Position numbers and translations under genes: made by a program. A DNA stretch of 64,000 bases from Acidobacteriota bacterium. GTDB lineage: Bacteria; Acidobacteriota; Aminicenantia; Aminicenantales; Saccharicenantaceae. A model generated the notes under the pieces. It searched no databases. It was not told the DNA's origin and was given only the letters and a program-made list of their open reading frames with translations. Numbering within the stretch: position 1 is the stretch's first letter; every line of letters starts with the position of its first letter. The DNA is taken from NCBI GenBank assembly GCA_033549365.1, contig JAWSUF010000007.1, positions 19,154-83,153 on the forward strand, read 5' to 3'. Shown here one piece after another: positions 673 through 17,249 of this stretch.

Positions 673-3600
673 TTTAGGCTCTCCACAATCGGTGTTAATC
701 GGTCGTATTCCTCAAGGCATTTGCGCTTGGACATGAACTCGCCGAAGGCTTTTTTCTCTTTCTTTTTAAGCACCGGAAAGGTTTCCAGGATGTAGGCGAA
801 ATCATCGCGTGAAAGGCCGTAAAGGTGAGCCACGTAGGCGTCGATTTCGGCTCGAAGCTGTGCCCTGTCGCCGGTGTCTCGTCGGTCGGGCATGCGGTCG
901 TGCACGCCGCAATGGGGTCCCCATTCTGGTGTTAGATTTTTGGCTCCGTCCCGCAGGCGTTTTCGGATTTCCTGTTCATGAGCAGGACCGTAGGCATCGA
1001 TTGGGGCTGATGGCGGATACCAGAAAGTTTGAGACTGCCAGCTGGTTGAAAAGGTCTTCTCCCAGAGCGCATAAAAATCATCTTTCACACAAATAAGTCT
1101 AAGTGCACGAGCAATTAAGAAGGAGTCGCCAGCGAGCATTGTCAAAGGTAATGGTAACTGCTCAATGTGGAAAATATTTACATTAGATGTTGTCCGAAAG
1201 CGTATACAAAAATCGAGGACATGCGAATTTAATATCGCCAGTATTGTAAGAACAGGTAATGAATTTATTTGCTGTGTATTGATATTAATGCATGTGCACT
1301 TTACTTCACATAGATACTGCCGAGGAATAATGGTGGCAATTAGTGTCCTTTCATTTGTTGCGGCAGCAACTCCACGAAAACAAAGCCGGTAGTGAGAGGG
1401 ACCTCTCCTTGGTAAATTGTGATATTTCTTTTTTGCCAGATCCGCTGCGTTGTTTTCCTCTACCCAAAATCTTGGCTCGCTAAAATAAGGATCAAATTGC
1501 CATATGTTTTTCCCTTCCCATAGCGGAAGGCCCTTACTTTCAGTGTTCAGAATAGAAGCATCTGATGTAACATTCAGTTCCTGGTAGATATCTATCTGTT
1601 TATAACTCCCTATGATCTCACCATTTTCGTAACATTTTGAAAGTATATCAATGGAGCGAGCATCCTCTACTTCGAGTGGTGTTAGGGTGCTTGGAGAGAA
1701 CCTACGAATTTGGTCAAGGGTCATTGTTATAGATATCGAGTCGATAGCAGGCAATCGCTCAGGATTATGTTTCATGAAGGCGCACTTGAACCGGTCCGTT
1801 TCCCCACCTTTTTGTGTGCCGAAGGTGACGAACTTAAAGCGACCATCCACTGCGCTAAAAACAGTGGGCCACCGGTTTTCAAAGCAGTACAGAAACTCTA
1901 TTTGGCTGCTACCAAAAAACCGTTGTCGCAATGGCTGGCACCCTTGGTCTGTATAAAGTCCGCTCGGCACCACGATCCCCATGCGACCGCTGTTTTTCAA
2001 AATAGCGAAGAAACGTTCGAGGAAGGCTTTGTAAAGATCAATCTTCCCTTTCTGAAGAGATGTATATGCCTCGGGCTCTTTGAAATAAGCTGAAGCATCC
2101 TTAAATCCCGCCTCATATTTCTGCCACCTTTCAACTATAATCGGATGTTGCCTGTGTAGTTTATTAATGACCTTCAATGCTTCCTGTTTTTTATATTTTC
2201 TGAAATCCGGATCATAAGTGACATAGAATTCCTGAGTATTTGGTTGCAGTACGTCCCAGGGTGGATTGCCGACCGTCGCCGAGAATCCTCCCACTCCGTT
2301 AAGGCCGAATACGTCGGGAAACTCCAGAGGCCAGTGATAAAAATGGTGCCATTTTCGATATGCCTTTACCGTTTCCAGAATCTCAGGCAGCGCAGGATTC
2401 AGGGTGTTGGCTACAGACATCCCCTTTGCGAGCCGCTCAAATATGTCCTTGTAATCATCAGTCTGGATTTCCAGGTCCATCAGGTAAGCCGTAAAAAGAT
2501 CGGCCAAGGGGCGCAAATGAGACGTCGCATCGAGCGCTTCATCCAACACGGCTTTCTGGCTGTCCGTGTCGTCCTCATCGATCTGGGTGATGGACGCAAT
2601 ACCCTGTCCAGCCTCGGCCAGGGCAGAGGAAAGGTCGTTGTAGTCAAACAGCAGCCTTTGCTGGTCTTTCCTTTTAGTGCTCTCCTTCCTACGTTCCGGA
2701 ATGGAAGCGAGCTGATCGAGTGATCGAATGCCGATCAGGCTGTTGCCGCAGCGGACGTGGTGGTCAAGAAAGGTCAGCTTGTGTTCGATGGCAAAACAGT
2801 TGAGCCAAAGAGACAGTTTGGCCAGGTTAACGGCCAGAGGATTAAGGTCGACTCCGTAAATACAGTGGCGGGTGATGCGACGCCGCCAGTCATTGGGCCA
2901 GCTGGAGACTGAAACCCGCATTCCTTTGACATGGGGCACCTCTTCAAGCAGGGCGACCACTAGGCCAGCCATCTGGTTAGCTGCGTCCACCAAAAAGTGT
3001 CCGCTTCCCATTGCCGGATCGCAGACCTTGAATTCCAGCACTTCCTCTTCGACAAAACGTTCGACCAGCGCTGAGGCGGCTTGTGCCGCCCCGCGGCGGG
3101 TGCCTACATCGTGTCCTTTCCGCGCCTGCTCCAACAGCTCGTCGAACCGATTTCGATAATCCTGCTCAAATTTTTGGTTAAGCGGTTGGACGATGGTTTT
3201 TTCGTTGAGAAAACGTACCAGCGCCTCAGGCGTGTAATACGAGCCAGTTTGTTTACGTTCCAGTGCGGATTCACCGAAATAGACATCCCCCTTTTTGATC
3301 AGGGTGTCACCCTGTTTTTTAGATGTCTGGGAAGCCAACAGCATCTCCACACCCTTCTTGGTGCGGCGGCGGATGCGGTCGGCATCGGCAAGCAGGACTG
3401 TGTACTCCAGGATGTTCTCGTAAAGCTCCCCAAGGTGACGAACCTCAAGGTCTTCATAGGGTATGGCGTACTCTCCGTCCGGCTCGTTGTTGTACGGTTC
3501 GACAAATGCCAGCAGGTAAAGCGCTCGGCACATAAAATCGTTGCGCAGCTGATGTTGACCCAGGAACGGCTCCTCTTCGTCATCGAAGAGGCCGCCGTTG

Positions 3601-4601
3601 TAGCCCATGATGCCGTATTCCGGGTCACCGTCATTCACGGCGTTTATCAACCCTTTGAGATGCTTCCACAAATCATACTGATCCGTTTCGTGGCGTTCAC
3701 CCCAGCGAAATTTGCGAGCCTCCTTGCAGAGTGTTTGGATGGAGTGCCGCTGGTAGAGATCAGCTTTTTCCGGGTCCGAGGGCAGCAGTCGCCGGGCCTC
3801 GGCATAAAACAGGAACAGGCAGCGGTAAATCAGCTTGACGGCACTCTCGAAGATTTCCGCCCTTTCTTCCTCAGTGTACTCTTCGCCGCTTTTTTGGGTG
3901 TCAAAAATGAAACCGTTGCAGATGTACTGCAGGACCTCGTCCACCTGGGCAAGAAAAGGTGTCTTGACGCTGTCTTCAAGCACTTGCTCTGATTGTTCCC
4001 GGTCGCGGTCGAGCCTGCACTTGTAAACGCCGACGGATTCATCCTGCTGTCCAACCTCGGCATCATCAACGTCCTCTGCAATGAAAGAAATTTTGTGAAA
4101 GAATCGCTCGAAAAGGCCATATTCAGCCTCATCCGATCCTTCCAGCGCCTGCTCTAAGGGCAGTTCCACGTAATCTTCATAGGGTCTTGAACTCTTGGTG
4201 GAGTAAAGCCGCCAAAGGGCACCGTTTGTCAGGATTCCCCAGTTGAGCTTACGTTCCCTGAGCTGCGCCAGAAGCTTGGCGGGGTAAAAGCTTCCGACGG
4301 ATGTGTTGTCTATATATGATCCAGGCGGCGCAAGATAGAGCACTCCAATGCAGTTTTTAAACCCCCAGTCTTCAAAAAGCGGGTAAACGCCCGGAGCGAT
4401 GGGATTGCCGGGAGGGACGAACTCGAGATAGCTCAACGCCTGTTTCAAGAAAGATTCCCACAGGGACTCGGTGTCCTGGGAATTCCGGGACCGCCACGTC
4501 TGAGCCAGGGTCGCCATGCGGCCCTGTGCGGCATCGTCGAGTTTGACGACGTCTTTCAATTCCTCAATAAAAAGCGAGCTGAACAGGCCGTTATTCTTCA
4601 T
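669..4601 (-). CDS. Large (1310 aa) gamma-class N6-adenine DNA methyltransferase, PglX / Eco57I / type IIG-like
   Basis: SAM-binding motif I, VCDPAMGSGHFLVDA, is encoded at about 3001-3027. Catalytic motif IV, GNPPWD, is at about 2256-2267. IYGVDLNPLAVNLAKLSLWL lies between them. The N-terminal module contains WGILTNGALWRLY, typical of PglX/type IIG N-termini, but I see no clear PD-(D/E)xK triad. A long C-terminal region is TRD-like. Confidence 0.85.
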   Translation of the reverse strand: MKNNGLFSSLFIEELKDVVKLDDAAQGRMATLAQTWRSRNSQDTESLWESFLKQALSYLEFVPPGNPIAPGVYPLFEDWGFKNCIGVLYLAPPGSYIDNTSVGSFYPAKLLAQLRERKLNWGILTNGALWRLYSTKSSRPYEDYVELPLEQALEGSDEAEYGLFERFFHKISFIAEDVDDAEVGQQDESVGVYKCRLDRDREQSEQVLEDSVKTPFLAQVDEVLQYICNGFIFDTQKSGEEYTEEERAEIFESAVKLIYRCLFLFYAEARRLLPSDPEKADLYQRHSIQTLCKEARKFRWGERHETDQYDLWKHLKGLINAVNDGDPEYGIMGYNGGLFDDEEEPFLGQHQLRNDFMCRALYLLAFVEPYNNEPDGEYAIPYEDLEVRHLGELYENILEYTVLLADADRIRRRTKKGVEMLLASQTSKKQGDTLIKKGDVYFGESALERKQTGSYYTPEALVRFLNEKTIVQPLNQKFEQDYRNRFDELLEQARKGHDVGTRRGAAQAASALVERFVEEEVLEFKVCDPAMGSGHFLVDAANQMAGLVVALLEEVPHVKGMRVSVSSWPNDWRRRITRHCIYGVDLNPLAVNLAKLSLWLNCFAIEHKLTFLDHHVRCGNSLIGIRSLDQLASIPERRKESTKRKDQQRLLFDYNDLSSALAEAGQGIASITQIDEDDTDSQKAVLDEALDATSHLRPLADLFTAYLMDLEIQTDDYKDIFERLAKGMSVANTLNPALPEILETVKAYRKWHHFYHWPLEFPDVFGLNGVGGFSATVGNPPWDVLQPNTQEFYVTYDPDFRKYKKQEALKVINKLHRQHPIIVERWQKYEAGFKDASAYFKEPEAYTSLQKGKIDLYKAFLERFFAILKNSGRMGIVVPSGLYTDQGCQPLRQRFFGSSQIEFLYCFENRWPTVFSAVDGRFKFVTFGTQKGGETDRFKCAFMKHNPERLPAIDSISITMTLDQIRRFSPSTLTPLEVEDARSIDILSKCYENGEIIGSYKQIDIYQELNVTSDASILNTESKGLPLWEGKNIWQFDPYFSEPRFWVEENNAADLAKKKYHNLPRRGPSHYRLCFRGVAAATNERTLIATIIPRQYLCEVKCTCININTQQINSLPVLTILAILNSHVLDFCIRFRTTSNVNIFHIEQLPLPLTMLAGDSFLIARALRLICVKDDFYALWEKTFSTSWQSQTFWYPPSAPIDAYGPAHEQEIRKRLRDGAKNLTPEWGPHCGVHDRMPDRRDTGDRAQLRAEIDAYVAHLYGLSRDDFAYILETFPVLKKKEKKAFGEFMSKRKCLEEYDRLTPIVESLK

Positions 4602-5062
4602 AGTGCCAGGGTCTCCTTCTGATCGACCACGAATGTGTACTGACGATAGCGTCGGAATTCACGGGTCGCGATAATCTTGTCGTATTGAAGAACGAATAAC
4701 AGGCAGGGCTTCTGGTTCCAGGTTTCCACACGGGTGGTGAACTGTTCGACGCTGTTTGCCTGGCCGGACCAGGTGGCCTTGAGAAACTCGATGCCTGAGA
4801 CGATTAAAACAGGGGCCTTGTCATACCTTTTCAAGAAATCGAAAAGGTTTGGAATCAGGAACTGGCCGATCTTGTTGCCGAGGTTTACGTCCTGAGCGAA
4901 AAGCTCCAGCAGATCAAGATGTTCGGAATCAGTCTGGCGAGCCAACTCTGTAGCCCACTCTTTTTGGCCCTCGTACTCATGGGTCAGAACGATGCAAGCC
5001 CGACCGCGGGGGCGGGAGGGCAGGGATCTCACAAGTAGAACCATGTTGACAGGATCGCTCAT
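4598..5062 (-). CDS. Small operon protein (154 aa), possibly BrxF-like with a degenerate P-loop
   Basis: It has 4-bp ATGA overlaps with both neighbouring genes. The layout (beta-strand IVLTHEYEG where a Walker A would sit, and APVLIVSGIEFL where a Walker B would sit) recalls BREX-3 BrxF. No intact GxxGxGK[ST] is present. The family assignment is from memory and unverified. Confidence 0.5.
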   Translation of the reverse strand: MSDPVNMVLLVRSLPSRPRGRACIVLTHEYEGQKEWATELARQTDSEHLDLLELFAQDVNLGNKIGQFLIPNLFDFLKRYDKAPVLIVSGIEFLKATWSGQANSVEQFTTRVETWNQKPCLLFVLQYDKIIATREFRRYRQYTFVVDQKETLAL

Positions 5063-6453
5063 TGAAAAATGCCTCCCGGTGATTGCTCGCTGTCTTCACG
5101 CGGCTCGCGGTCTTCAAAATGGGCGGACAAAAAACTGAGCGCCGAGAGGCCCGGCTTGAGACGAATTTGATCGAGGTTGTGGGTGGTTTCGTACCGCAGC
5201 CAGCCACGTTCGTGAAGCCCTTCGATCTGTTGCCGGAACGATGCGGCATCAAGCCCGAAAACCATGGCTGGGGAGCCAGGTGTTGCCGCCATCTCACTAA
5301 CCTGGAAAAGATGGGTGCCTTTTGCAGCACAGAAATCATAAATCATGGCACTTATTACAAGAGGCGAAAATTGTGTGTAACGGCGACGGTAGAGGCATTC
5401 GTCCGACGTACGCTGCAAAATCTCTAAGTTTTTAAGATTTTGTTCAATGTAGGCATCGACAACAAAACGAACCTCTTCGTAAAGCCCCTTGCTGATTGTC
5501 CTCTTGCCGTATTTCCCTGCCAAATCGCTTCTGAGACGTTCAGTCCACTCTTCCTGTGTCATTGCCGATGCTTGAGTCAGCAGGTGATTGAATATTTCAA
5601 ACCAGATCAGATTGCGAAAAGAGCCGGCACCGACGTAGTGACACCACTCCAGTGATCCTGTCTTTTCAATGAAAATATCATGTTCTGCAAAGAGTAATCC
5701 TGTCGGCGTCAACACCTGATTTCCCGGCTTAATCAATCCCATCGCCGCGCCAATGCTGATCAAGCTTTCAACTTGTCGATCCGCAAGCCCAGTGTCTTCT
5801 TGCAGAACCTTGCGGTTAATTTTCTTCGCCTGTCGATTCTCAAGGAGGAAATGAAGAATCCGAGCAAGTTGATCAAACTCCAGGAGGTAGCCGTTGCTGA
5901 CCTGAAATTTACGCCGAGTGTTTTTTGGAGAGGTAGTATTTTCCTTTGAAGGCCTTGAAGAGGGTGGACTCACGCTACGCTCATTTGTATTTTCAGGAGA
6001 CTCCGGTTTCCGCTCCGCGACAGAGGGACTTACCGATTCCACCTGTTTCTTTTTTTGGGGATTGGAAGACGAGGGGTTCGGTTTTTCTTCATTCGGCAAT
6101 TTTTGAAACAACTTTTGATGTGTTGCTCCTGCTGCCATTTTGGCGGGAGGCGGTTTTGAAATAACAGATCTGATGGCTCCTGTTGCAATGAAATCAGCCA
6201 CTTTGAGCAAAGCGACCGACGATTGTCCTAAGCCTTTCACCTTTGCAAGTTCATCTTGTGAGGCGGACAGGACCTTAGAGAGACTGCCAAAAACCCGTAT
6301 GAGCTCCTCAGCGAGCGGCTTGACATCCTTGCGCCCGATGGCAAAGGTGAGAAGCAGTTCCAGCAACATTTCGTCAGAGTGCGACTCCACATCGCCCGAC
6401 AAAAAGCGATCTCTGAGTCTTTGCCTATGTCCTCTTTTTCTTTTTTCCGTCAT
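5059..6453 (-). CDS. RadC/UPF0758-type N-terminal HhH module fused to a DUF4007-like (wHTH-like) C-terminal domain; no JAB/MPN domain
   Basis: The N-terminus, KRKRGHRQRLRDRFLSGDVESHSDEMLLELLLTFAIGRKDVKPLAEELIRVFGSLSKVLSASQDELAKVKGLGQSSVALLKVADFI, matches the RadC N-terminal HhH pattern. A Ser/Pro/Lys-rich linker follows. The C-terminal pattern (GLADRQVESLISIGAAMGLIKPGNQVLTPTGLLFAEHD...LEWCHYVG...IWFEIFNHLL) resembles DUF4007. It is the first gene of the coupled operon. Confidence 0.6.
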   Translation of the reverse strand: MTEKRKRGHRQRLRDRFLSGDVESHSDEMLLELLLTFAIGRKDVKPLAEELIRVFGSLSKVLSASQDELAKVKGLGQSSVALLKVADFIATGAIRSVISKPPPAKMAAGATHQKLFQKLPNEEKPNPSSSNPQKKKQVESVSPSVAERKPESPENTNERSVSPPSSRPSKENTTSPKNTRRKFQVSNGYLLEFDQLARILHFLLENRQAKKINRKVLQEDTGLADRQVESLISIGAAMGLIKPGNQVLTPTGLLFAEHDIFIEKTGSLEWCHYVGAGSFRNLIWFEIFNHLLTQASAMTQEEWTERLRSDLAGKYGKRTISKGLYEEVRFVVDAYIEQNLKNLEILQRTSDECLYRRRYTQFSPLVISAMIYDFCAAKGTHLFQVSEMAATPGSPAMVFGLDAASFRQQIEGLHERGWLRYETTHNLDQIRLKPGLSALSFLSAHFEDREPREDSEQSPGGIFQ

Positions 6454-6627: not shown

Positions 6628-7587
6628 CTATTCCCTAAATATGTTTCTGTTATGCCATGAAAGAAAATTTCGAGATGGATGATCGATGGGATTGGGCGGC
6701 AAATGAGCAACAGGCCGACCATCAAACGGATAGTATGAACGGCCGTTCTCAAATTCGTCCTTGAGGCGGCGGCTGACTTCGATTCTATATTCCGGCGTAA
6801 TCGTGATGTAGCCGCGGTCGAAGAGACGATGAAAATCGCTTCGGAGAAGTAAGCCGTTCGAAACGGCGTGGGGGCCGCTTTCGGTGTAGGGCTTGATATG
6901 AGCGGCTTCGAGGGCGGGCAAGGAATGCTCTTCGGTAATCGCACAGGCCCGTCGATAGGCATCGGTGACCTGTAACCGAAATGATGCCTGACCAAGGCGG
7001 GGCTTGATCATGGTTTCCTTGCCAAAGCGGGCTCGTTCTTCTTCGATCCGTTGGGCTTCTCTATCAAGGTCATGAATACGGTGGACCTGCCATGCGTGCT
7101 GAAGATTTTTCCAGATAAACTGACCGGCTTCCTTGTCGAGTTCGTAGCCCTTTGCCTTGCCTCGAACAATCGATGCGCTCCATTCGGGGGCAGGAAACCA
7201 CAATGACTCATCAAAAAAGAACGGTTGGGTGAGAATGATACAACCGATCTGAAAATCTTCGTGAGGATTATCCTGAATCCTTCGATATCGGATAAGCCGC
7301 CGGTGCATTTCTGTGTATGAGCCCGCTCCGTTTTGGATTCCAAAATTCTCCCATGCGAAAGAGATCGGAAAAGTTGTGAAATAGAGGAAGACCCCGCCCC
7401 CTGCAATCAGATCACGATTTTCTGTTCTTTGGCTGCGATGCAGCTTGAAGAGGAAAAGGTCCCCCTTGCTGAGGGCGCGAAATTCTGAACTAGGCGATGG
7501 CTGCCAGAAGTTGACCTCGTCGATGCCGGGCTGAGAGCGCAAATAATCGAACCAATCCTGATCTGTGACGCCGGCATAAATCCTCAT
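6628..7587 (-). CDS. HNH endonuclease with an N-terminal PUA/EVE-like domain (putative modification-dependent type IV restriction enzyme)
   Basis: The C-terminal motif LPALEAAHIKPY...SNGLLLRSDFHRLFDRGYITI is of the HNH_2 type. The N-terminus, MRIYAGVTDQDWFDYL...VNFWQPS...GDLFLFKL, is typical of the PUA-like reader domains fused to such nucleases. Confidence 0.75.
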   Translation of the reverse strand: MRIYAGVTDQDWFDYLRSQPGIDEVNFWQPSPSSEFRALSKGDLFLFKLHRSQRTENRDLIAGGGVFLYFTTFPISFAWENFGIQNGAGSYTEMHRRLIRYRRIQDNPHEDFQIGCIILTQPFFFDESLWFPAPEWSASIVRGKAKGYELDKEAGQFIWKNLQHAWQVHRIHDLDREAQRIEEERARFGKETMIKPRLGQASFRLQVTDAYRRACAITEEHSLPALEAAHIKPYTESGPHAVSNGLLLRSDFHRLFDRGYITITPEYRIEVSRRLKDEFENGRSYYPFDGRPVAHLPPNPIDHPSRNFLSWHNRNIFRE

Positions 7588-7712: not shown

Positions 7713-9035
7713 TCACAACACCGTATACCCATCATCCTCAACCTCCACTCCCCCTTCCTCCTCCCCCACTCCAAACAACAGCCCTGTGCCATCATCCTCC
7801 TCCCTCCCCCTCCGCTTCTTCACCAGACGCCTCACTCCCACACCGCCTCTCCAGTCCTCCGCCCTCTGGACGGTGAGTTGGCCCTGGGCCGCGGCGTCAT
7901 CGAGCGCCGCAAGCTCAGCGACCTCCTCGCCCTCGACCGTGCTGAGATAGACCCACTGGGCGGCGCGGGCGATGCCCGTGAACAGGAGGCGACGGCGCGT
8001 GTCGAGGGAGAACTTGGCCAGGGCCGCGGCGGTCAGGCGAGGGAGGAGCACGCTGTCGAAGGTCAGGCCCTTGGCCTGGTGGAAGGTCGCGATCTTGGGG
8101 ACAAGGTTTCCGAAGTCGCAGGGGCCGCGGGCGGCGCGGTCCTTGTTTTTGGACACGGCGCGTTCGACCTCGACGCCGCGTTCGGCGAGCGCTCCGGCCA
8201 CGGAGTTCAGCAGGTGGTTTCGGGCGACGATGATGCCGATGCGGTCGTTCTGGACCTGGCGGTGGCGGACGATCTCGGCCAGCCGGTCCATCTCCTGTTC
8301 GGTCGATGCGGCCGTGAAGAAAAGCGGCCGGTCCCGCACCCGCTGCTCGGCCCCGACCTGGGCCAGGTACTGGGAGCGCTTGAGGAGATCGTCGATGAAG
8401 TGGGCGGCCAGGTCGGCCACGTAGGAGGCGTTCCGGTAGGCGCCGAGAAGCGAGACCTGGGGGGCCTCGATGCCGAGCTTTTCACGGATGAACGACGGGT
8501 CGGCGCCGTCGTCGAAGATCCTCTGCTGGGGATCGATGAAGACCGTGACGTGGCGGGCGACGATGCGGAGGATGTCGTAGACGACGGGCGGCAGGTCCTG
8601 GCCCTCGTCGACGAGCACGAACTCCAGGGAGTTGCGGAAGGACGTCTTGCGGCCGACGAGGTCGAGCACCGTGCGGCGGATGAGGTCGAAGTCCGGCTGG
8701 AAGCCGCCGTTGAGGTAGGGCAGGCTGCGGGCGATGTGGCTCCTGTAGAGGGTGACGCACCACATGTCGAAGGTGCTGACCGTCTCGTCGGGAATCTCCA
8801 GAAACTCGAACCCGGAGCGGATGTACTGCTTGACGACGTTCGTGAAGACGAAGACGCGGAAGCGGTCCGGCGGGATGCGGCAGGTGCGGGCGATGTGGTC
8901 GGCGCGGTGGATGAGGATCTGCGTTTTCCCGGAACCGGCGAACCCCATGACGATGCGGTTGAGCGTCGGGGGCATGACGACGGCGCGCCGCTGGTCGAGC
9001 GTCAGGTCCTGCCGGGGGACGAGCCAGGTGATCAT
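7713..9035 (-). CDS. Compact superfamily-1 (UvrD/Rep-like) helicase/ATPase, about 440 aa
   Basis: Walker A GFAGSGKT is encoded at about 8922-8948. Walker B/DEGQD is VLVDEGQD. A late motif, ATFHQAKGLTFDSVLLP, is present. I chose the start MITWLV at 9035 because it forms an ATGA overlap with the stop of the upstream Hsp70-like gene. The Arg-rich 139-aa extension in the track ORF (to 9455) looks like an artefact. Confidence 0.8.
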   Translation of the reverse strand: MITWLVPRQDLTLDQRRAVVMPPTLNRIVMGFAGSGKTQILIHRADHIARTCRIPPDRFRVFVFTNVVKQYIRSGFEFLEIPDETVSTFDMWCVTLYRSHIARSLPYLNGGFQPDFDLIRRTVLDLVGRKTSFRNSLEFVLVDEGQDLPPVVYDILRIVARHVTVFIDPQQRIFDDGADPSFIREKLGIEAPQVSLLGAYRNASYVADLAAHFIDDLLKRSQYLAQVGAEQRVRDRPLFFTAASTEQEMDRLAEIVRHRQVQNDRIGIIVARNHLLNSVAGALAERGVEVERAVSKNKDRAARGPCDFGNLVPKIATFHQAKGLTFDSVLLPRLTAAALAKFSLDTRRRLLFTGIARAAQWVYLSTVEGEEVAELAALDDAAAQGQLTVQRAEDWRGGVGVRRLVKKRRGREEDDGTGLLFGVGEEEGGVEVEDDGYTVL

Positions 9036-11755
9036 GAGGCGCGGCCCTTTCGGGGTTTGCCGGGCGGAGAGTCGGGCGGAGGGCCGGAGTCGGCATAGGC
9101 GTCGGGGCGCGTGACGTCGCCGCGGAGATCGATGCCGGCGCGCCGGCGCTTGCGGAGTTCGGACTCGGCGCGCTTGACCAGGGCGTCGTCGCCGGCCATC
9201 CGGGCGGCCGTTTGCAGCCAGCCCAGCGCCCATTCGTCGAGGACGGGAGGCGGCAGGAAGGCGCGGACGGATGCGGCCGCCAATCGGACCGCCTCGTCCT
9301 GCCGAGCGAGAGAATGGAGGCATACGGCCTTGAAAGCGAGATAGGGCCCGGGATCTTCTTCCTTGAGAAGCGCCCGGTCGATCGTCCTCAGCGCCTCGTC
9401 GTGCAGGCCGCGCTGCCTGAAGTTCATAGCCAGGTTGAAGAGCGGACCACCCCAATAGGGGCTCACCTTGTCGGCTTCGAGAAAGGCCGTTTCGGCCCGT
9501 CGATAGTCGCCGAGTTCGGTGAAGTAAATCCCCTGGAGGTTGAGGATCTCCAAATCAGGCCGGCTGATCCGGCTCTGGGCGGCGCGGAGGTAATCCAGGG
9601 CCTTTTCGTGCTGGTTGAGTTCGGCGTGGAGGCGGGCGAGTTCGATGTAAGTTTCGCGGTCGCGGGCCGTTCCGCCCTTGCGGCGACGGAGGTCCTCTTC
9701 GATCTCCTCGATCTTGACCTGCGTTTCGCCGGGATTGGCGATGTTGACCAGGGGGTTTTCGACGGTTTTTTCGAGGACGGCGGAGGGCGCGCCGGGGGAC
9801 GCGGAGGAGGAGAAGCGGTCGGATGGATCGGAGGAACCGGATCGCGCGGACGGGGCGGAGGCGGCTACGGCGGATGAGGCGGAGGGCGGGTCGATCAGGG
9901 AGGCGCGGCATTCGAACTGCTTTCCGCGCGTCAGGCGGTATTCGAGCTGGAGGGCGTCGCCGGGAGAGACGCCGTCGGGAAGGCGCCAGATCTCGTCGAA
10001 GATGGGCTGGCTGTCGCATTCGCCGACGATCTCGAAGCGGAGCTCGCGGACGGGGCGCGGGGCGTTGAGGGGGACGGCGAGGCGCTCTTTGAGGAACGAG
10101 CCGTCGGCGGGGAAAGGCAGCTCGACGCCCGAGGGGACGAGCGGGTTGAGGCGGCCGTCCGAGGTCACGAGGGCGATCCCGTCGTGGAGGACGGGCCGGA
10201 TGAAGGGGCGGCCGAGGAGGGCCAGGTGGAGGGCGTTCCAGGCAGCGCCGCGGGCGACGCAGAGCTTGGAGTCGAGGCTGTCGTCGTGGAAGACGTGGCG
10301 GGCGGCGGGGAAGAAGGCGAGGAGGGCGGCGCGGACCTGGGGGATGAGGCTGCTTCCGCCGACGGTCAGGCAGAGGTCGACGTCGGAGGGGTCGCGGTCG
10401 GCCCGGTCCATGGCGTCGCGCAGGGGGGCGAAGATCGACTGGGACAGGCGGAATTCCGTGGTGCGGGCAAAGAGAAACTCCGTGTCGAGGAAGGGCGCGA
10501 GGAGCGTTTCGAACGCGGCGGCGGTGAGGGCCGGGCGCGCGAGGGTGTAGGTCGATTTTCCGAGGACGCAGGAGGCGGACGGCTGGCGGACGACGATGGA
10601 GGCGGGGTCGTTGGAGGGGGACGGGGCGCCGGCGCCGGAGCGCGAGTAGCGGCCGAACTTTATTAGGCGGCTGATCTCGGTGGATATGGCGATCTTGAGG
10701 GCTTCGGCCTTTCCGAGAAGCTGGGGCTCGAGGCCTTTTTTCTTTTGGGCGAAGGTCAAGGCCAGGGGGTCGAGGCCGTTTTCCCGGAGAAGCTCCGGGA
10801 TGAGGATGTCGTGGACGATGGCCGCGTCGATGTCGCCTCCGCCGAGCCGGTGATAGCGGGAGACGGAGAGGTGCGAGATCGTGAGGCCGCGGGGGATGTG
10901 GCGGAGGAGAGCCGCGGCTGAAGTATCGGATGGGTCGTCGGATGACGCGTCGGATGGGGCGCGGGAGATCTCGACGACCGAAACGTCGCAGGTTCCGCCC
11001 CCGAAATCGAAGACGACGCAGAGCGCGGGGCGATTAGACGGAAGCTCGAACCCGGGCGAGTCGGGATCGCCTGACTCGCCGCCCGAATAGCCCACCTGGC
11101 TGTTTGTATTGCTTCCGGAGGCCCGGGACGAACCGCCGCCTGATGCGGCGCGGGGCCCCGGGCGCAGTCCACCGGACATGAAAAAGTCGATGAGCGCGGC
11201 CGTGGGCTCGTCGAGAAGGTCGTCGTCGGAGATGCGCAGGCCGGCAAAGCCCGCGGCGAGGAGGGTGTCGCGGCGCTGGTTGAGCATGAAGGAGGCCGGG
11301 ACGGTGACGGCGATGCGGCCGGGAGCTTCGGAATCGAACGGCAATGCGCCGGCGGCGGGGATCGCGGACGCGGCGCCGGCGATGAACCCCAGCACTTTGC
11401 CGGCGATTTTCGAGGCGTGGTTCAGCGGCTCGGAGGCGCGGAAGTAGGTCTTACGGAGGCCCATTTCGTTTTTCGTGTCGTAGAAGAGGGTTTTTTCGAA
11501 CAGCAGGCCGTAGTCGGCCGGGAAGGCGCGGAGGCGCTTGGCCCCCTCCCCCACCCAGAGCGCGCCGTCGGGCAGCACGGCGACGACCGAGGGCACGAGC
11601 GGGCTCGAAAAGACGCCCTCGCGGGTGGGCTGCTCGATCTCGAGGACGCGGACCTCGGGCGGCGCGCCGGAGGCCGGCTCCCAGACGATCTCAGCTGCGG
11701 CCGAGTTGGTCGTCCCCAAGTCGATGCCGAGAACTCGGATTTCGCCGGATTTCAT
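9032..11755 (-). CDS. Hsp70/actin-fold ATPase with low-complexity inserts, an SBD-like beta region and C-terminal TPR repeats (about 907 aa)
   Basis: Motifs seen: VLGIDLGTTNS (phosphate-1), VTVPASF...QRRDTLLAAGFAGL...LDEPTAALI, VVFDFGGGTCDVSVVEI, and LTVGGSSLIPQVR. The C-terminus has TPR-like repeats (HEKALDYLRAAQ..., GDYRRAETAFLEADK..., GLHDEALRTIDRAL). I chose the start MKSGEIRV at 11755 because it is preceded by GGAGGG. Confidence 0.8.
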   Translation of the reverse strand: MKSGEIRVLGIDLGTTNSAAAEIVWEPASGAPPEVRVLEIEQPTREGVFSSPLVPSVVAVLPDGALWVGEGAKRLRAFPADYGLLFEKTLFYDTKNEMGLRKTYFRASEPLNHASKIAGKVLGFIAGAASAIPAAGALPFDSEAPGRIAVTVPASFMLNQRRDTLLAAGFAGLRISDDDLLDEPTAALIDFFMSGGLRPGPRAASGGGSSRASGSNTNSQVGYSGGESGDPDSPGFELPSNRPALCVVFDFGGGTCDVSVVEISRAPSDASSDDPSDTSAAALLRHIPRGLTISHLSVSRYHRLGGGDIDAAIVHDILIPELLRENGLDPLALTFAQKKKGLEPQLLGKAEALKIAISTEISRLIKFGRYSRSGAGAPSPSNDPASIVVRQPSASCVLGKSTYTLARPALTAAAFETLLAPFLDTEFLFARTTEFRLSQSIFAPLRDAMDRADRDPSDVDLCLTVGGSSLIPQVRAALLAFFPAARHVFHDDSLDSKLCVARGAAWNALHLALLGRPFIRPVLHDGIALVTSDGRLNPLVPSGVELPFPADGSFLKERLAVPLNAPRPVRELRFEIVGECDSQPIFDEIWRLPDGVSPGDALQLEYRLTRGKQFECRASLIDPPSASSAVAASAPSARSGSSDPSDRFSSSASPGAPSAVLEKTVENPLVNIANPGETQVKIEEIEEDLRRRKGGTARDRETYIELARLHAELNQHEKALDYLRAAQSRISRPDLEILNLQGIYFTELGDYRRAETAFLEADKVSPYWGGPLFNLAMNFRQRGLHDEALRTIDRALLKEEDPGPYLAFKAVCLHSLARQDEAVRLAAASVRAFLPPPVLDEWALGWLQTAARMAGDDALVKRAESELRKRRRAGIDLRGDVTRPDAYADSGPPPDSPPGKPRKGRAS

Positions 11756-11792
11756 CGCCTTGCCCTCCATGTGCCCATATTTATGCCTTCAT

Positions 11793-13103
11793 TCATGCCT
11801 GCATTGAATTCGCATCCAACAGCCATTTCCAAACCGGCCGGACGAGGACACTCTCACCGTTGAGGGTTCGCGTTTCCTCCTGGTTGTATGTCAGGATGCC
11901 GCCTTTTGTGATGCCGAGCTCGCGCCGCGCTTCGGCGAAGCCGTTCAGTTCGCGCTTTTTGTTGGCCGCGTTGAGCTCCCAGCAGACCTGCCAGGCTTCC
12001 TCGGGACGGTTTCCCCTGCGGACGATGAAATCGCACTCGCCCCGGCCCTTGAAATACATGGGCTTTTCGCGGCGGCGGAAAAGCTCCACTGCGACGGCGT
12101 TTTCCAGCAGGCGGCCCCGGTTTTCGGAAAACGAGCCGCTCAGGAGCGAAAGGCCGGTGTCCACGAGATGGATTTTTTTCGGATTCATCGTGCGTTTCCG
12201 GGGCGAATAATCGAACTTCTCGCAGACCGTCACGAAAAAGGCTTCTTCCAGAAAGCGGAGGTAATTGGCGATGCTTCGCTTGCTCCCGGGAAGGCCGTGG
12301 GCTTTCAGTTGTTTCTCGAACGCGGAGATGGAGAAGACGGACGCATAGCCTTCGAGGAGGTTTCTCATGAGAAGATCGAGCAGATCGCGGGCGCGGATGC
12401 CGTGGCGGTCGAGGATGTCGCGGTAAAACGTCGTGTCGAAATACGTCTGCAGGAGCTTTCGCTTCGCGGGCTCGTCGGCGGCGGCGGCGACCTCGGGAAA
12501 TCCGCCGTATCGCAGGTATTCGTCGAAAGCCCGCAGGACGAGTCCGCTTTCGGGCGTCGAAAGGAGGGCCGGAGACCAGGAGATGCCGCGGAAAGCCAGG
12601 AATTCCCGGAAGGAAAAAGGCAGAATCAGGACGTCTTCGTACCGGCCGCGGAGTTCCGTGGCGATTTCCGAACCGAGAAGCGAGGCGTTGCTTCCGGTCA
12701 CGACGATGGCGTATTTCCGGGTGTTGTGGAGCGTGCGGACGACGCGGCTCCAGGCCGGGAGGCGCTGGATCTCATCGAAGAAAAGCCGGCTGGGCGAGCG
12801 GCCCGTCAGTTGATGGAACGCGGCGAGGAGGCGATCCATGTCCTCGGGGCGGAAGTCGCGGAGCCTGTAGTCCTCGAAATCGACAAAAAGAATGTCTTCG
12901 CGGACGGCCCGGCCGGATTTCAGGAGGCCGGCGGCGAGCTGGTAGAGATAGACGGTTTTTCCGGCGCGGCGCGGGCCGGCGACGGAAAGGACCGGCCGAG
13001 GGGGGTCGAGTGTGGGAACGGGAGCTTCCCGGGGTGTCGACGCGGGGAAGTCCGCGCTCCGGAGCCAGTCGGCGATGACTTTTTGCAGGGCGGTGTTATC
13101 CAT
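11793..13103 (-). CDS. AAA+ ATPase with a DUF4143 domain (COG1373 family)
   Basis: P-loop GPRRAGKT and Walker B ILFVDFEDY/FFDEIQ are present. The length and C-terminal GECDFIV motif are typical of COG1373 ATPases. It ends 37 bp upstream of the Hsp70-like gene on the same strand. Confidence 0.8.
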   Translation of the reverse strand: MDNTALQKVIADWLRSADFPASTPREAPVPTLDPPRPVLSVAGPRRAGKTVYLYQLAAGLLKSGRAVREDILFVDFEDYRLRDFRPEDMDRLLAAFHQLTGRSPSRLFFDEIQRLPAWSRVVRTLHNTRKYAIVVTGSNASLLGSEIATELRGRYEDVLILPFSFREFLAFRGISWSPALLSTPESGLVLRAFDEYLRYGGFPEVAAAADEPAKRKLLQTYFDTTFYRDILDRHGIRARDLLDLLMRNLLEGYASVFSISAFEKQLKAHGLPGSKRSIANYLRFLEEAFFVTVCEKFDYSPRKRTMNPKKIHLVDTGLSLLSGSFSENRGRLLENAVAVELFRRREKPMYFKGRGECDFIVRRGNRPEEAWQVCWELNAANKKRELNGFAEARRELGITKGGILTYNQEETRTLNGESVLVRPVWKWLLDANSMQA

Positions 13104-13169
13104 AATTGTTTACCTCGATAAACAATTTATGCCAATATTGTTTACCATGTCAACCCTAAAGAAACAATT
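13104..13169. promoter_or_regulatory. Cluster of four copies of an ATTGTTTAC/AAACAAT motif forming two inverted repeats (putative operator)
   Basis: The first repeat is AATTGTTTA (13104-13112), a 6-nt spacer, then TAAACAATT (13119-13127), a perfect 9-bp palindrome arm pair directly abutting the ATG at 13103. The second is ATTGTTT (13137-13143) paired with AAACAAT (13162-13168). ATTGTTTACC also occurs as a direct repeat at 13105 and 13137. Confidence 0.4.
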
Positions 13170-13261: not shown

Positions 13262-14302
13262 TTACCTCTTTTCCCATCTGGCGCCCGGCCCGCGTCCGGA
13301 AACAGATACCTCGCCGTTTGCTTTGAGTTTCTTGAGCACATGTCTGACCATGTCGCGGCTGACTCCCGGACAGGCCCGCTCCAAGTCGGACAGCGAGAAA
13401 GAACCCGGGAATGAGCGAACCGCCGAAAGCACCAGATCGGTTTTTGCGCCGCGGGGACCCGCCATATTGCCGACGCGTTCCTCGAACTCCTTATAGGCGG
13501 CTTTAATTGTGTAAAGAGCGAAGTTGATATATGGCCAGGGATCATGCCGGGACTCGTGCCAACCCCTTGAACTTTCTTCCAGAGCCTCATAATATCTTTC
13601 CTTGTTTTCTTCGATGTGTCTTTCGAGGCTGATATAGCGACCGACCTCAAGTCCCAGGTGGTAGCATTGGAGCAGCATCAAAAGCCTCGACACCCTTCCG
13701 TTGCCGTCACGAAAAGGATGAATGCATAGGAAATCGAGGTTCCAGGCGGCCATGAGAATCGGCAAAGGAATCCGGCGGTCTTCAACTCCGGGATTCCAAT
13801 ACGAGACAAGCCCGGTCATGGCCCGGGGCGTGTTTTCGGCGGAAAGCGGCCTGAAACGGATCCGAATACGGCCGTCGGCAAGTTTTTCGATGATGTCGCC
13901 GTCTTTCAGCTTATAGCGACCGGCATCGCCTGTCTCCGCCCTCGTCAAGGCATGCAGTCTTCGGATCGTGTCTTCGCTCACCTCAAGATTTTTTCCCTTT
14001 TCGTGGATCAGTCTGAGAGCGTCGCGGTAACCCCTGATTTCTTCCTCGTTCCGGTCGTGGAGCAGAGACTTGCCGAAAACAACCGTGGCGACACGGGCCT
14101 TTTCGACGATGACGCCTTCCATGCGGTTCGAGGAGACGGCGCTCTCGATCAGGGCGTGCTCGCGCAGGACCCTGAGTCTCTGGGGAGACTGTCCGGTGAA
14201 AAACGCCTGCTTTCCCCGGGATTCCGCGATATCGGACAGATACCAAGCCGTAGGCGGAGGAATAAGCGGCGGAGATTCCAAAAACATTCTTAGGGTATGC
14301 AT
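13262..14302 (-). CDS. Fic family protein (AMPylase-type) with an N-terminal inhibitory motif and a C-terminal wHTH
   Basis: The Fic core motif HPFRDGNGRVSRLL is present. An inhibitory-helix motif [ST]xxxE[GN] is present as SNRMEG near the N-terminus. The C-terminus is wHTH-like. Confidence 0.9.
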   Translation of the reverse strand: MHTLRMFLESPPLIPPPTAWYLSDIAESRGKQAFFTGQSPQRLRVLREHALIESAVSSNRMEGVIVEKARVATVVFGKSLLHDRNEEEIRGYRDALRLIHEKGKNLEVSEDTIRRLHALTRAETGDAGRYKLKDGDIIEKLADGRIRIRFRPLSAENTPRAMTGLVSYWNPGVEDRRIPLPILMAAWNLDFLCIHPFRDGNGRVSRLLMLLQCYHLGLEVGRYISLERHIEENKERYYEALEESSRGWHESRHDPWPYINFALYTIKAAYKEFEERVGNMAGPRGAKTDLVLSAVRSFPGSFSLSDLERACPGVSRDMVRHVLKKLKANGEVSVSGRGPGARWEKR

Positions 14303-15678: not shown

Positions 15679-16335
15679 TTATGGATTCGTTTTAAACCCC
15701 AGCATGTCCAGGGCAATCGATCGCATATCCTTCTGGAACTGCTGCGCATCCGGCCTGACGATCCAGTGGATCCGGTCGAGAAGGGCCGGGTCGAAACGCT
15801 CCAGCTTTTCGGCGATTTCAGGGGGAAAAATACCCGCTGCCTTGGACTCTGCGGCGCTGAAGATCTCCCGCCAATCCGGACGGATCTTCAGTGCGATTTC
15901 ACGGATATCGGCGACGTCCTTCGGTTCGTCGCGGTCTCTGAGCGCGGGGATCTTGTTGGCCAGAATGTTCAGGGGGTTGTCGATGGCGGAAAACGGCGCG
16001 CCCGGGATTTTTTGCCGTTCCCCCAGGTAAAACGGGACGTCATTCACGAATTCGACCTTAAGAGCCTGTTCGACATCGATCCGGCGGAATCGGTCCTCGT
16101 TGACCATGACGGCAAAAGCGACGGCGTTTTTTCGCAGGGCTGAAAATACGGCCGTCATTTCGCGATCGAAATCGTCGGCGTCGTTGACGAAAAAATCAAG
16201 GTCTTCGGAATAACGATGTTGGTAATAGAACCTGGAAAGGGCCGTCCCGCCCGTCAGATAAAACCCGGTGCCGGCGGTTTCGACGGCGGCCAAGACCTTA
16301 TCTTGAAGCGGATAGAGAGACTTTTCCCAGCACAT
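15679..16335 (-). CDS. Nucleotidyltransferase of the AbiEii/AbiGii toxin family (DUF1814-like)
   Basis: FYLTGGTALSRFYYQHRYSEDLDFFVND matches the GGTAL...HR.S.DxDF pattern of AbiEii-type nucleotidyltransferases. Confidence 0.75.
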   Translation of the reverse strand: MCWEKSLYPLQDKVLAAVETAGTGFYLTGGTALSRFYYQHRYSEDLDFFVNDADDFDREMTAVFSALRKNAVAFAVMVNEDRFRRIDVEQALKVEFVNDVPFYLGERQKIPGAPFSAIDNPLNILANKIPALRDRDEPKDVADIREIALKIRPDWREIFSAAESKAAGIFPPEIAEKLERFDPALLDRIHWIVRPDAQQFQKDMRSIALDMLGFKTNP

Positions 16336-16683: not shown

Positions 16684-17019
16684 ATGGTTAGCGATTATAT
16701 GGATAAAGCGGAAGTATTAGAAATCATCGACCGATTTCGGGCTGTTCTCGAGGAAAACGGAATCGGCATCGAGCGCATTGTCCTGTATGGTTCTTATGCC
16801 GCCGGAAGAGAGCATGAAGGGAGCGACATCGATATCGTTGTCATATCCGATGATTTTTCCGGAATGGATTATTGGCAACGGATCGACATGATCTCGGAAG
16901 CCATATACAAAGTCTTCAAGCCGATTGAAGCGATGGCCATGACCTCACGAGAGTGGCGGGAGAGTCGCTCGATAGCCGTTGAGTTGGCCCGGCAGGGAGA
17001 AGTGGTTTTCGCCGCGTAA
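16684..17019 (+). CDS. Minimal nucleotidyltransferase (MNT / Pol-beta superfamily) domain protein
   Basis: LYGSYAAGREHEGSDIDIVVISDDF matches the GSxxxGxxxxxSDIDxxV nucleotidyltransferase motif. No HEPN partner ORF is adjacent. Confidence 0.85.
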   Translation: MVSDYMDKAEVLEIIDRFRAVLEENGIGIERIVLYGSYAAGREHEGSDIDIVVISDDFSGMDYWQRIDMISEAIYKVFKPIEAMAMTSREWRESRSIAVELARQGEVVFAA

Positions 17020-17048
17020 ACCATCGCAGAAGCTCCATTTTGCCGTAT

Positions 17049-17249
17049 TTATGGAAGGCTTTTCAACCCCAGCATATCCAGGGCGATCGATCGCATATCC
17101 TTTTGGAACTGCTGCGCATCCGGCCTGACGATCCAGTGGATCCGGATAGAGAGACTTTTCCCAGCACACTTAATATATTCTTCCGGAGTGATCCGATAGT
17201 CGGACCGGTCATCGCGCCCTTCCGGCCGTATTATATCAGCATGCACGGC
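17049..17249 (-). repeat. Collapsed mosaic copy (about 200 bp) of the AbiEii cassette at 15679-16625
   Basis: Four collinear segments match the full cassette. 17049-17145 matches 15679-15775 (the nucleotidyltransferase 3' end). 17143-17168 matches 16308-16334 (the nucleotidyltransferase start). 17174-17201 matches 16519-16547. 17207-17249 matches 16581-16625 (the partner-gene start plus leader). The track ORFs 16945..17169 and 17049..17246 carry the matching peptide fragments MCWEKSLYP, DYRITPEEY and IHWIVRPDAQQFQKDMRSIALDML. Confidence 0.85.

Follow-up and report, generated by a model that had tools for sequence, protein, structure and literature searches.

Two adjoining genes, one encoding an Hsp70 protein that ends in tetratricopeptide repeats (TPRs; the protein is here called Hsp70-TPR) and the other a minimal superfamily 1 (SF1) helicase, are found in a stretch of 64,000 nucleotides (nt) of contig JAWSUF010000007.1 from an Acidobacteriota bacterium of the Aminicenantales (assembly GCA_033549365.1). 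The whole of this stretch is referred to as the window, and its neighbouring genes were annotated from 669 to 21088. An earlier note, made from the letters of the window, had read the pair together with an adjacent AAA ATPase gene as a three-gene coupled operon at the junction with a defence island. The genes and the candidate promoter lie as follows.

13124..13153, minus strand: candidate σ70-like promoter TTGACA-18-TAAATT upstream of the AAA gene (10/12 in a consensus scan)
11793..13103, minus strand: AAA_14/DUF4143 ATPase gene, 436 amino acids (aa) (open reading frame, ORF, and Pfam AAA_14+DUF4143)
9032..11770, minus strand: Hsp70-TPR gene, 912 aa from the ATG at 11770, stop codon 9032-9034 (ORF)
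7713..9035, minus strand: helicase gene, 440 aa, a minimal SF1A helicase of the UvrD/PcrA/Rep type (ORF and Pfam UvrD-helicase/UvrD_C)

The three same-strand ORFs of the earlier note are thus present on the minus strand, and they are not chance ORFs, since they match hundreds of homologues with E-values down to 0. The stop codon of the Hsp70-TPR gene and the ATG of the helicase gene share the ATGA at 9032-9035, an overlap already described and readable in the sequence, and each of the motifs named before (IDLGTTNS, DFGGGTCDVS, VGGSSLIP, GSGKT, and DEGQD) was found again. Of the two possible start codons of the Hsp70-TPR gene, the ATG at 11755 that the earlier note had used is the likelier, because a GGAGGG Shine-Dalgarno sequence (11763-11768) lies 7 nt before it and because the database copy of the window protein has 907 aa, the length from that codon. 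The gap to the AAA gene is then 37 bp, as had been stated (22 bp from the ATG at 11770). A gap of 22 to 37 bp is too short for a promoter, and a promoter-like site was found solely upstream of the AAA gene (13153-13124); given this site and the short gap, the AAA gene and the pair probably form one transcript in this genome, for which the candidate site at 13124-13153 is the likely promoter. The G+C content of the pair region is 67 to 68%, compared with approximately 60 to 63% over most other parts of the window and 45 to 52% in its first 7 kb.

The unit that is conserved is smaller than this transcript. One genome per species was scanned for 185,579 species, and relatives of Hsp70-TPR were found in 299 of them (~0.16%), patchily distributed over more than 10 phyla that include Acidobacteriota, Desulfobacterota, Armatimonadota, Verrucomicrobiota, Bacillota, Nitrospirota, Pseudomonadota, Hydrogenedentota, Elusimicrobiota, and Planctomycetota. 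The best 80 of the 299 relatives were examined as loci (cited below by L numbers), and 67 of these carry a helicase homologue (32 to 60% identity) directly downstream of the Hsp70-TPR gene, which corresponds to 67 of the 78 informative loci, as 2 of the 13 loci without a downstream helicase end at a contig edge. Among 54 complete pairs, the junction is a 4-nt overlap in 23, the genes overlap or abut in 32, and they lie within 19 nt of each other in 51. Across the pairs, divergence of the one protein goes with divergence of the other (distance matrices, r = 0.86; Mantel p = 0.001); the correlation indicates that they travel together and is by itself no proof of contact. No third conserved gene or regulator was found on either side of the pair in the 80 loci, relaxed thresholds included, and the ORFs immediately upstream are singletons in 47 of 59 cases. 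The earlier note had made its proposal depend on whether the pairing extends beyond this genome, which it does, with the coupling kept and the divergence correlated. The conserved unit is almost certainly a two-gene Hsp70-TPR/helicase cassette.

In a protein collection, 1483 homologues of Hsp70-TPR were recovered, almost all of approximately 800 aa. Its substrate-binding and TPR half retrieved 245 cluster representatives (50% identity) at E<=1e-10 among 1.84 billion, and this type of TPR exists only in fusion with Hsp70, as every full-length match measures approximately 780 to 850 aa.

The architecture of Hsp70-TPR was derived from profile alignments and from an AlphaFold2 (AF2) model with a predicted local distance difference test score (pLDDT) of 80 and a predicted template modelling score (pTM) of 0.76. 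Its parts are the following.

10211..11743, minus strand: Hsp70 nucleotide-binding domain (NBD), residues ~10-520 (hidden Markov model, HMM, alignment to DnaK structures; Foldseek DnaK/BiP E 1e-23)
11060..11152, minus strand: Ser/Gly/Pro-rich NBD insert, residues 207-237, pLDDT <50
10886-10957, minus strand: second NBD insert, residues ~272-295, disordered in the AF2 model
9758..10210, minus strand: linker and β substrate-binding domain (SBDβ) of 8 strands, residues 521-671 (DSSP on the AF2 model)
9788-9886, minus strand: disordered low-complexity insert at the β7/β8 junction of SBDβ, residues 629-661
9140..9727, minus strand: TPR array in the position of the α-lid, residues 682-877, 11 helices, about 5 repeats (AF2)
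9035..9139, minus strand: disordered C-terminal tail, residues 878-912, with an [L/R]-P motif at R888-P889

Pfam assigns HSP70 to this protein together with sub-threshold TPR matches. No degeneration is seen in IDLGTTNS and DFGGGTCD, its conserved phosphate-binding motifs, and in the HMM alignment to DnaK structures K70, E171, and D194-T199 of DnaK correspond to K100, E188, and D255-T260; K100, E188, D255, and T260 are, with the GGS motif, invariant across 21 diverse homologues. The linker and the beginning of SBDβ, LIQPVLHDGIAL, align with DnaK residues 378 to 407, VLLDVTPLSLGI, in a profile search of PDB. Foldseek matched full-length DnaK and BiP at E 1e-23, SBDβ included, and the best superpositions are with lid-less docked DnaK (7kru; TMt, 0.67; root mean square deviation, 5.6 Å; 663 columns). 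What had been called a non-canonical beta region is therefore a recognisable eight-stranded SBDβ that superposes on DnaK. In the place of the α-lid, the model has a helix and after it ten others arranged as about five TPRs, in keeping with the C-terminal TPR array of the earlier note, and the TPR profile matches the engineered TPR protein 9qhb (E 1e-28). Because the catalytic positions and the linker align with those of DnaK and the residues are invariant, Hsp70-TPR is, as modelled, a genuine and probably active Hsp70 in which TPRs have taken the place of the α-lid.

The long low-complexity inserts reported before are real, being disordered in the model at residues 207-237, ~272-295, and 629-661, and they are lineage specific, since the homologues of approximately 800 aa do not have them. 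SBDβ is the most variable of the folded domains, with a mean pairwise identity of 36%, compared with 40% for the TPR array and 52% for the NBD. In NCBIfam, Hsp70-TPR scores 61 bits on the DnaK model TIGR02350 (cut-off, 822) and 26 to 54 bits on three HscA models (cut-offs, 620 to 743). By these profile scores the protein is neither DnaK nor HscA, and an outcome that would have spoken against the earlier proposal, an ordinary chaperone of the HscA/HscC type, was not obtained for DnaK and HscA. No gene for a J-domain protein or GrpE was seen among the annotated neighbours in the window (669-21088), as had been observed, and none recurs in the 80 loci; Hsp70-TPR may use the DnaJ of its host.

The C-terminal tail carries a conserved feature of its own. 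P889 is kept in at least 90% of the homologues, the [L/R]-P motif is seen in nearly all loci, and the region has a local pLDDT of ~70 with a β-bridge in the AF2 model. The extended form [L/R]-P-x-Φ near the C-terminus, which reads …RPVVRPRP… in the copies without a helicase (solo copies), resembles proline-rich binders of the DnaK cleft, and by this analogy the motif could be a pseudo-substrate.

The helicase consists of a folded motor followed by a disordered extension (folded residues 1 to 397 and disordered residues 398 to 440 in an AF2 model with a pLDDT of 81).

7845..9035, minus strand: motor core with 1A/2A and a vestigial 1B, without 2B, residues 1-397
8922-8936, minus strand: Walker A motif GSGKT in the motor core
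8595-8609, minus strand: DEGQD motif in the motor core
7740..7844, minus strand: disordered linker, residues 398-432, pLDDT 30-36, variable in sequence and length
7716..7739, minus strand: acidic-hydrophobic C-terminal peptide EDDGYTVL-COOH, conserved across homologues

The description of a UvrD-like ATPase of roughly 440 aa was accurate: the protein has 440 aa and the Pfam domains UvrD-helicase/UvrD_C, and it is a bare 1A/2A motor. The Q motif and motifs I, Ia, and II to VI are invariant across 20 homologues. Foldseek places it with UvrD, PcrA, and Rep (TMq, 0.6 to 0.68; ~14% identity; E 1e-15), with further matches to Upf1-like, SLFN, HelD, and GajB cores. The HMM alignment to PcrA omits residues 107 to 174, most of 1B, and reduces PcrA residues 342 to 560 to 57 residues, which is why the helicase is considered to be without 2B. 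The family is uniform in length, its 560 homologues having approximately 410 to 430 aa. The 2B domain of Rep inhibits unwinding by the monomer; plausibly, a motor without 2B needs control in trans. In L072, a longer helicase paralogue of 613 aa (8873-10714) follows the regular helicase of 414 aa.

The C-terminal extension of the helicase, linker and terminal motif together, spans 18 to 50 aa over 54 homologues, with a linker rich in P, A, G, E, and T. The tail has the consensus D-D-D-[D/E]-[L/I/F]-[D/S]-[F/L/I/V]-L-COOH, in short DDD-Φ-[D/S]-Φ-L-COOH. All 54 genomic helicases end in L or F, and 50 of them fit a simple definition of the motif, which occurs in only 4 of 524 other proteins from the same loci; in an independent metagenomic set it is present in 108 of 114 full-length helicases. 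Among 111 paired Hsp70-TPRs there is a single occurrence, in P0020, a deletion chimera. The tail classes …[D]ΦL and …[S]ΦL/…APF track the two main clades of the tree. A peptide of this kind is characteristic of docking motifs. Conceivable receptors are the TPR groove of the partner, the β sliding clamp, and the interaction network of the single-stranded DNA-binding protein (SSB) tail. Eukaryotic TPR co-chaperones clamp EEVD tails, and PEX5 binds PTS1; by analogy, the TPR groove of the partner is the favoured receptor, since it is a conserved and otherwise unexplained domain of a co-inherited protein.

P0020, a metagenomic protein of 1154 aa, was considered as a Rosetta-stone fusion of the two proteins and rejected. 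An in-frame deletion has brought TPR3 and helicase motif III together at a short stretch of similarity (…HAEALD/IIHEAARH…). With Walker A and DEGQD missing, P0020 probably represents a copy in decay or a chimera of assembly and not a functional fusion.

In a neighbour-joining tree, the copies without a helicase fall into three groups that branch apart from one another among the paired ones. Solo Hsp70-TPRs of Armatimonadota end in …DDFSF or …EDEDYFIW, those of L027 and L068 end in …MFDF, and those of Desulfobacterota end in …PRPVVK..LV.F.R..AA. In two of these three clades, Hsp70-TPR itself thus bears a helicase-like tail after loss of the helicase (L015, L019, L023, L025, L027, and L068), and from these termini it looks as if the function of the helicase's tail had moved onto Hsp70-TPR in two clades. 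The gain of a tail by solo copies indicates that the tail matters; the identity of the receptor is not given by it.

Solo copies also immediately precede CRISPR-cas operons, which belong to five subtypes: I-F (L024), I-E (L081, Desulfosudis oleivorans Hxd3, CP000859 3567947-3590385), I-Fv (L114), I-C (L030), and III (L027). No cas genes of those subtypes were found in the 67 paired loci. Some of the solo CRISPR loci have an Xre-M78 gene upstream or an SLFN_AlbA_2/HATPase_c_4 gene in between. A gene combining an Xre helix-turn-helix and an M78 peptidase domain lies just before Hsp70-TPR in L024, L033, and L081/L082, one gene further upstream in L051, and two in the window. Cas3 was examined as a tail-bearing client of the solo copies and discarded, as the C-termini of Cas3 and Cas2-3 at these loci are without an acidic tail. 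The helicase tail, the loss of 2B, and the helicase-less copies beside CRISPR-cas had no part in the earlier note.

The first ~17 kb of the window are a defence island, and housekeeping genes begin at 17.3 kb. In addition to the genes described above, the island includes an RmrA-like Xre-M78 gene, AbiEii, and the following.

669-4601, minus strand: type IIG/DrmMI-like methylase, 1310 aa
5059-6453, minus strand: DUF4007/SspB-like protein with a UPF0758/RadC-like N-terminus and DUF4007, weak SspB/BrxP matches
6628-7587: HNH_2 nuclease
13262-14302: SoFic-like Fic gene

The siting of the genes in a defence island next to Fic, AbiEii, and PIN modules, as it had been proposed, stands for the island, Fic, and AbiEii; PIN was not found in the examined part. 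The DUF4007 protein, an unannotated 154-aa protein, and the methylase form a three-gene minus-strand operon (669-6453; G+C content, 45 to 52%). Short ORFs at 16945-17246 and 15679-16335 duplicate both ends of AbiEii, the N-terminal (MCWEKSLYP…) and the C-terminal (…RIHWIVRPDAQQFQKDMRSIALDMLG), and look like a second, internally deleted copy, situated just beyond an ORF for an MNT-like nucleotidyltransferase (16684-17019, plus strand) and overlapping its 3' end.

Among the neighbours in the 80 loci, Eco57I/PglX-like methylases (14) and DrmD-like SNF2 helicases (14) are the most frequent, followed by AbiEi (5), type ISP enzymes (4), DUF499 (4), YhcG nucleases (4), DUF1156 (3), and GmrSD (2). Immediate neighbours numbering 123 match 207 PADLOC models at E<=1e-10, with DrmD in the lead (six proteins; best E, 3.9e-247). 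At least 35 of the 60 loci of at least 10 kb (at least 58%, a raw count with no matched background) have a recognised defence-type neighbour, so the pair is often near defence genes and not always in a housekeeping context, the alternative that the earlier note had named. In approximately 21 of the 80 loci a DrmD/BrxHII-like SNF2 gene and/or a PglX/Eco57I/MmeI-like or type ISP methylase is nearby, often on the same strand; examples are L016, L037, L048, L052, L068, L069, L071, L079, and L113, and the methylase at 669-4601 of the window. Such a neighbourhood recalls the cores of DISARM and ARMADA; the flanks contained no helicase of the YprA type. In L113 two genes for SNF2 and one for an MmeI-like methylase come after the pair, and L115 has in one row PLD-SNF2, an MmeI-like methylase, an OLD-family ATPase, a DprA-like gene, the pair, Zorya, and DarTG. 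The overlapping operon of L115 (7669-13638), comprising the OLD-family ATPase/TOPRIM, the DprA-like protein of 205 aa, Hsp70-TPR, and the helicase, is a single case resembling the Gabija-like pairing of OLD and UvrD.

A SoFic-like Fic gene lies within two genes of Hsp70-TPR in the window (13262-14302), L012 (11720-12778), and L051 (6915-7970). Metazoan FICD AMPylates the Hsp70 BiP. A general link between Fic and Hsp70-TPR was nevertheless rejected, as Fic is present in only 3 related loci; the other upstream genes of ~330 to 360 aa encode DUF932 proteins, response regulators, oxidoreductases, and the like.

The AAA_14/DUF4143 gene accompanies the pair in only 2 of the 80 loci, L002 and L012, as copies that are 73 to 74% identical and lie downstream of the helicase gene, directly before an HNH gene. 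The AAA ATPase was therefore dismissed as a third subunit. Its protein matches the PADLOC candidate PDC-S01 (PDLC04787; E 3.5e-101), residues 38 to 430 aligning with 29 to 408 of the 412 positions of the model, and the gene is seen as an independent neighbouring module in local juxtaposition with the pair. The three-gene operon of the earlier note holds insofar as the genes are probably co-transcribed here; it does not hold as a conserved unit. In these relatives from the Aminicenantes (L002, 11903-14142; L012) the AAA_14/DUF4143 gene overlaps the HNH_2 gene that follows, and in the window the pair sits between the AAA gene (11793-13103) and the HNH_2 gene (6628-7587). This arrangement suggests a shuffling of modules or an insertion of the pair into an AAA+HNH unit.

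The pair is, with moderate probability, a conflict or defence module. That it is a horizontally mobile two-gene immune cassette, with the helicase held and released by Hsp70-TPR, is quite possible, if short of probable. We propose only tentatively, and as somewhat unlikely in its entirety, that Hsp70-TPR senses and regulates, holding the helicase by its tail and releasing or loading it when an infection-derived client occupies SBDβ, and that the helicase without 2B is the effector. The two proteins would form a chaperone-client complex in which the TPR groove would hold the C-terminal peptide of the helicase, as eukaryotic TPR co-chaperones hold EEVD, and the cycle of the Hsp70 ATPase and SBDβ would set whether the helicase is held or released. 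An infection cue, which could be a protein of phage origin or a sudden rise in non-native polypeptide, would engage the fast-evolving SBDβ and change the state of the Hsp70, thereby freeing or loading the helicase. Without its 2B brake, the helicase would disrupt replication of the invader by translocation or unwinding or, in a variant of the model, deplete ATP. A broader formulation is doubtful: an Hsp70 immune module that shares the three-part logic of the eukaryotic system, in which titration of the chaperone or capture of a client would unleash the helicase and the solo branch would be a CRISPR-associated Hsp70.

Several observations weigh against these interpretations. Approximately 40% of the long loci have no recognised defence neighbour (the defence count is a lower bound), the pair of L083 lies amid ordinary genes in surroundings that are metabolic, as are those of L084, and the Armatimonadota solo copies adjoin housekeeping-looking genes such as those for GroEL, LysRS, and glycosidases. 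No cassette match was found among the 72,556 plasmids of PLSDB, and the 2.9 million viral contigs of IMG/VR yielded one true member, the remaining matches being distant ordinary Hsp70s. Carriage by plasmids or phages was rejected on these results, and horizontal mobility is read from the phyletic patchiness alone. The effector step is conjecture, since nuclease and other toxin domains are lacking from both proteins. The tail likewise resembles motifs with other receptors. The β sliding clamp-binding motif QL[S/D]LF, which is often C-terminal, is like the helicase tail at 4 of 5 positions, and one helicase subclade ends in DDDYDAPF, resembling DDDIPF, the C-terminus of SSB. With the tails of the solo copies, a receptor on some third protein agrees no less well than the TPRs do.

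A different role within immunity would be that of an accessory sensing or regulatory module for SNF2-methylase systems of the DISARM, ARMADA, or BREX kind, with the solo form serving CRISPR-Cas. We consider this unlikely, despite the SNF2 and/or large methylase genes near the pair in ~21 of the 80 loci, the methylase downstream of the pair in the window itself, the solo copies that immediately precede cas operons (five subtypes), and the presence of a GajB-like UvrD helicase in ARMADA type II (PMC12458937): most paired loci (some 59 of 80) are without such a neighbour, the types of neighbour vary widely, and the tight coupling of the pair is kept whatever adjoins it. A further alternative is the system of three genes of the earlier note, in which the DUF4143 AAA ATPase acts with the other two proteins. 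The shared strand, the gap of 22 to 37 bp, the promoter-like site only before the AAA gene, and the similar copies in L002 and L012 agree with it; as 78 of the 80 related loci do not have the gene, which in L002 and L012 follows the helicase gene and is paired with HNH, and as it matches a separate single-gene candidate, this version is very improbable.

The remaining explanations dispense with immunity. DnaK/DnaJ frees DnaB from λP, and HtpG supports Cas3; by analogy, a specialised Hsp70 could load, fold, or recycle a helicase of repair or replication restart in a housekeeping or stress role. Both proteins look catalytically competent and have no toxin domain, and the metabolic surroundings of L083/L084 and of the Armatimonadota solos would suit such a role; it is improbable in view of the rarity of the family (~0.16% of species genomes, patchy over many phyla), the elevated G+C content of the pair relative to most of the window, and the defence neighbours in at least 58% of the long loci. 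The pair could also be selfish or counter-defence cargo of an integrated mobile element, helping in replication or maintenance or interfering with host defence. The atypical G+C content of the islands, the modules shuffled between relatives, and DUF932 genes, which are common on conjugative elements and lie directly upstream of the pair in L005, L047, and L055 and a few genes upstream in L014, speak for cargo of this kind. The virtual absence of the cassette from viral contigs, its absence from plasmids, and the lack of integrase, Rep, or transfer genes recurring beside the pair make this quite improbable. A conflict or defence module remains the reading that we prefer.

As a two-gene cassette with intact ATPase sites, the pair renders Hsp70-based immunity directly testable. 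If the proposed mechanism were true, a chaperone cycle that gates a motor protein would be a new principle of sensing and a bacterial counterpart of the interaction of the Hsp70 tail with TPRs. The helicase offers a natural example for the control in trans of an SF1 motor without the regulatory 2B domain, and the solo copies beside five cas subtypes raise the question of chaperone help for, or regulation of, CRISPR.

The pair is apparently undescribed. No model of PADLOC v2.0.0 matches Hsp70-TPR, and the full-text literature searched contains no description of an Hsp70-TPR paired with a minimal UvrD helicase, in agreement with the earlier note, which knew of no named system of this composition. 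Nor did that literature contain a validated defence system built on Hsp70, the Hsp70-like proteins there being computational predictions. With DnaK, HscA, and HscC, Hsp70-TPR shares the actin-fold NBD with its catalytic residues, the hydrophobic linker, and the eight-stranded SBDβ. It differs from them in having a TPR array for the α-lid, a coupled helicase gene, and no recurrent J-protein or GrpE neighbour, and in being rare, patchy, island borne, and far under the NCBIfam cut-offs.

The EEVD tail of eukaryotic Hsp70 and Hsp90 is bound by the TPR co-chaperones Hop and CHIP. The likeness, which is one of analogy, is that one unit combines an Hsp70, TPRs, and, beyond a disordered linker, a short acidic peptide at a C-terminus. 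In the bacterial pair, however, the TPRs are fused to the Hsp70, the tail is on the partner (on the Hsp70 in solo copies), and the peptide ends in a hydrophobic residue and not in Asp.

The helicase shares with GajB of Gabija, ArmD of ARMADA, and C3a187 an SF1A UvrD-type motor located in defence islands. Its best PADLOC matches are C3a187 (NERD+UvrD; E 4.5e-23) and, weakly and partially, the GajB models (E 1e-13). In those three cases the helicase has a nuclease or toxin (OLD/TOPRIM GajA, NERD, or RelE) as a fused domain or as a partner, whereas the pair has no nuclease, and its helicase is without 2B, has Hsp70-TPR as its partner, and bears a distinctive acidic C-terminal tail. The match to C3a187 covers positions 199 to 543 of 559 in the model, and the helicase starts 10 residues before the Q motif, so that there is no NERD domain. 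An OLD-family gene, the kind to which GajA of Gabija belongs, was seen near the pair in 1 of ~85 loci (L115).

Predicted conflict systems in which Hsp70 takes part include DO-GTPase/tubulin/Hsp70 and GAP1-N2 with Hsp70 and GrpE (PMC7159879). They resemble the pair in the recruitment of Hsp70 into nucleoside triphosphate-dependent conflict systems, sometimes with TPR- or DnaJ-bearing partners, but they are multi-gene systems around GTPases, tubulin, or GrpE, none of which pairs an Hsp70-TPR fusion with an SF1 helicase. CnuD of type III CoCoNuTs and the Hsp70-McrB fusions are predicted accessories of type IV restriction with an Hsp70-like NBD/SBD and HEAT-like repeats; CnuD has a degenerate Walker-A-like motif and is linked with NxD GTPases of the McrB type and with HEPN RNases (PMC11090510). 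CnuD and Hsp70-TPR, compared here by description, have in common an Hsp70-like NBD/SBD followed by an α-solenoid and an occurrence in predicted defence loci with helicases, often by SNF2/PglX-type modules. Unlike CnuD, Hsp70-TPR has intact ATPase motifs, TPRs, and a UvrD-type SF1 partner. McrB/McrC-like genes are absent from the recurrent neighbour clusters of the 80 loci, for which no McrB-specific profile search was made. CnuD is the closest architectural relative of Hsp70-TPR, which departs from it in two hallmarks, the linkage to McrB and the degenerate ATPase.

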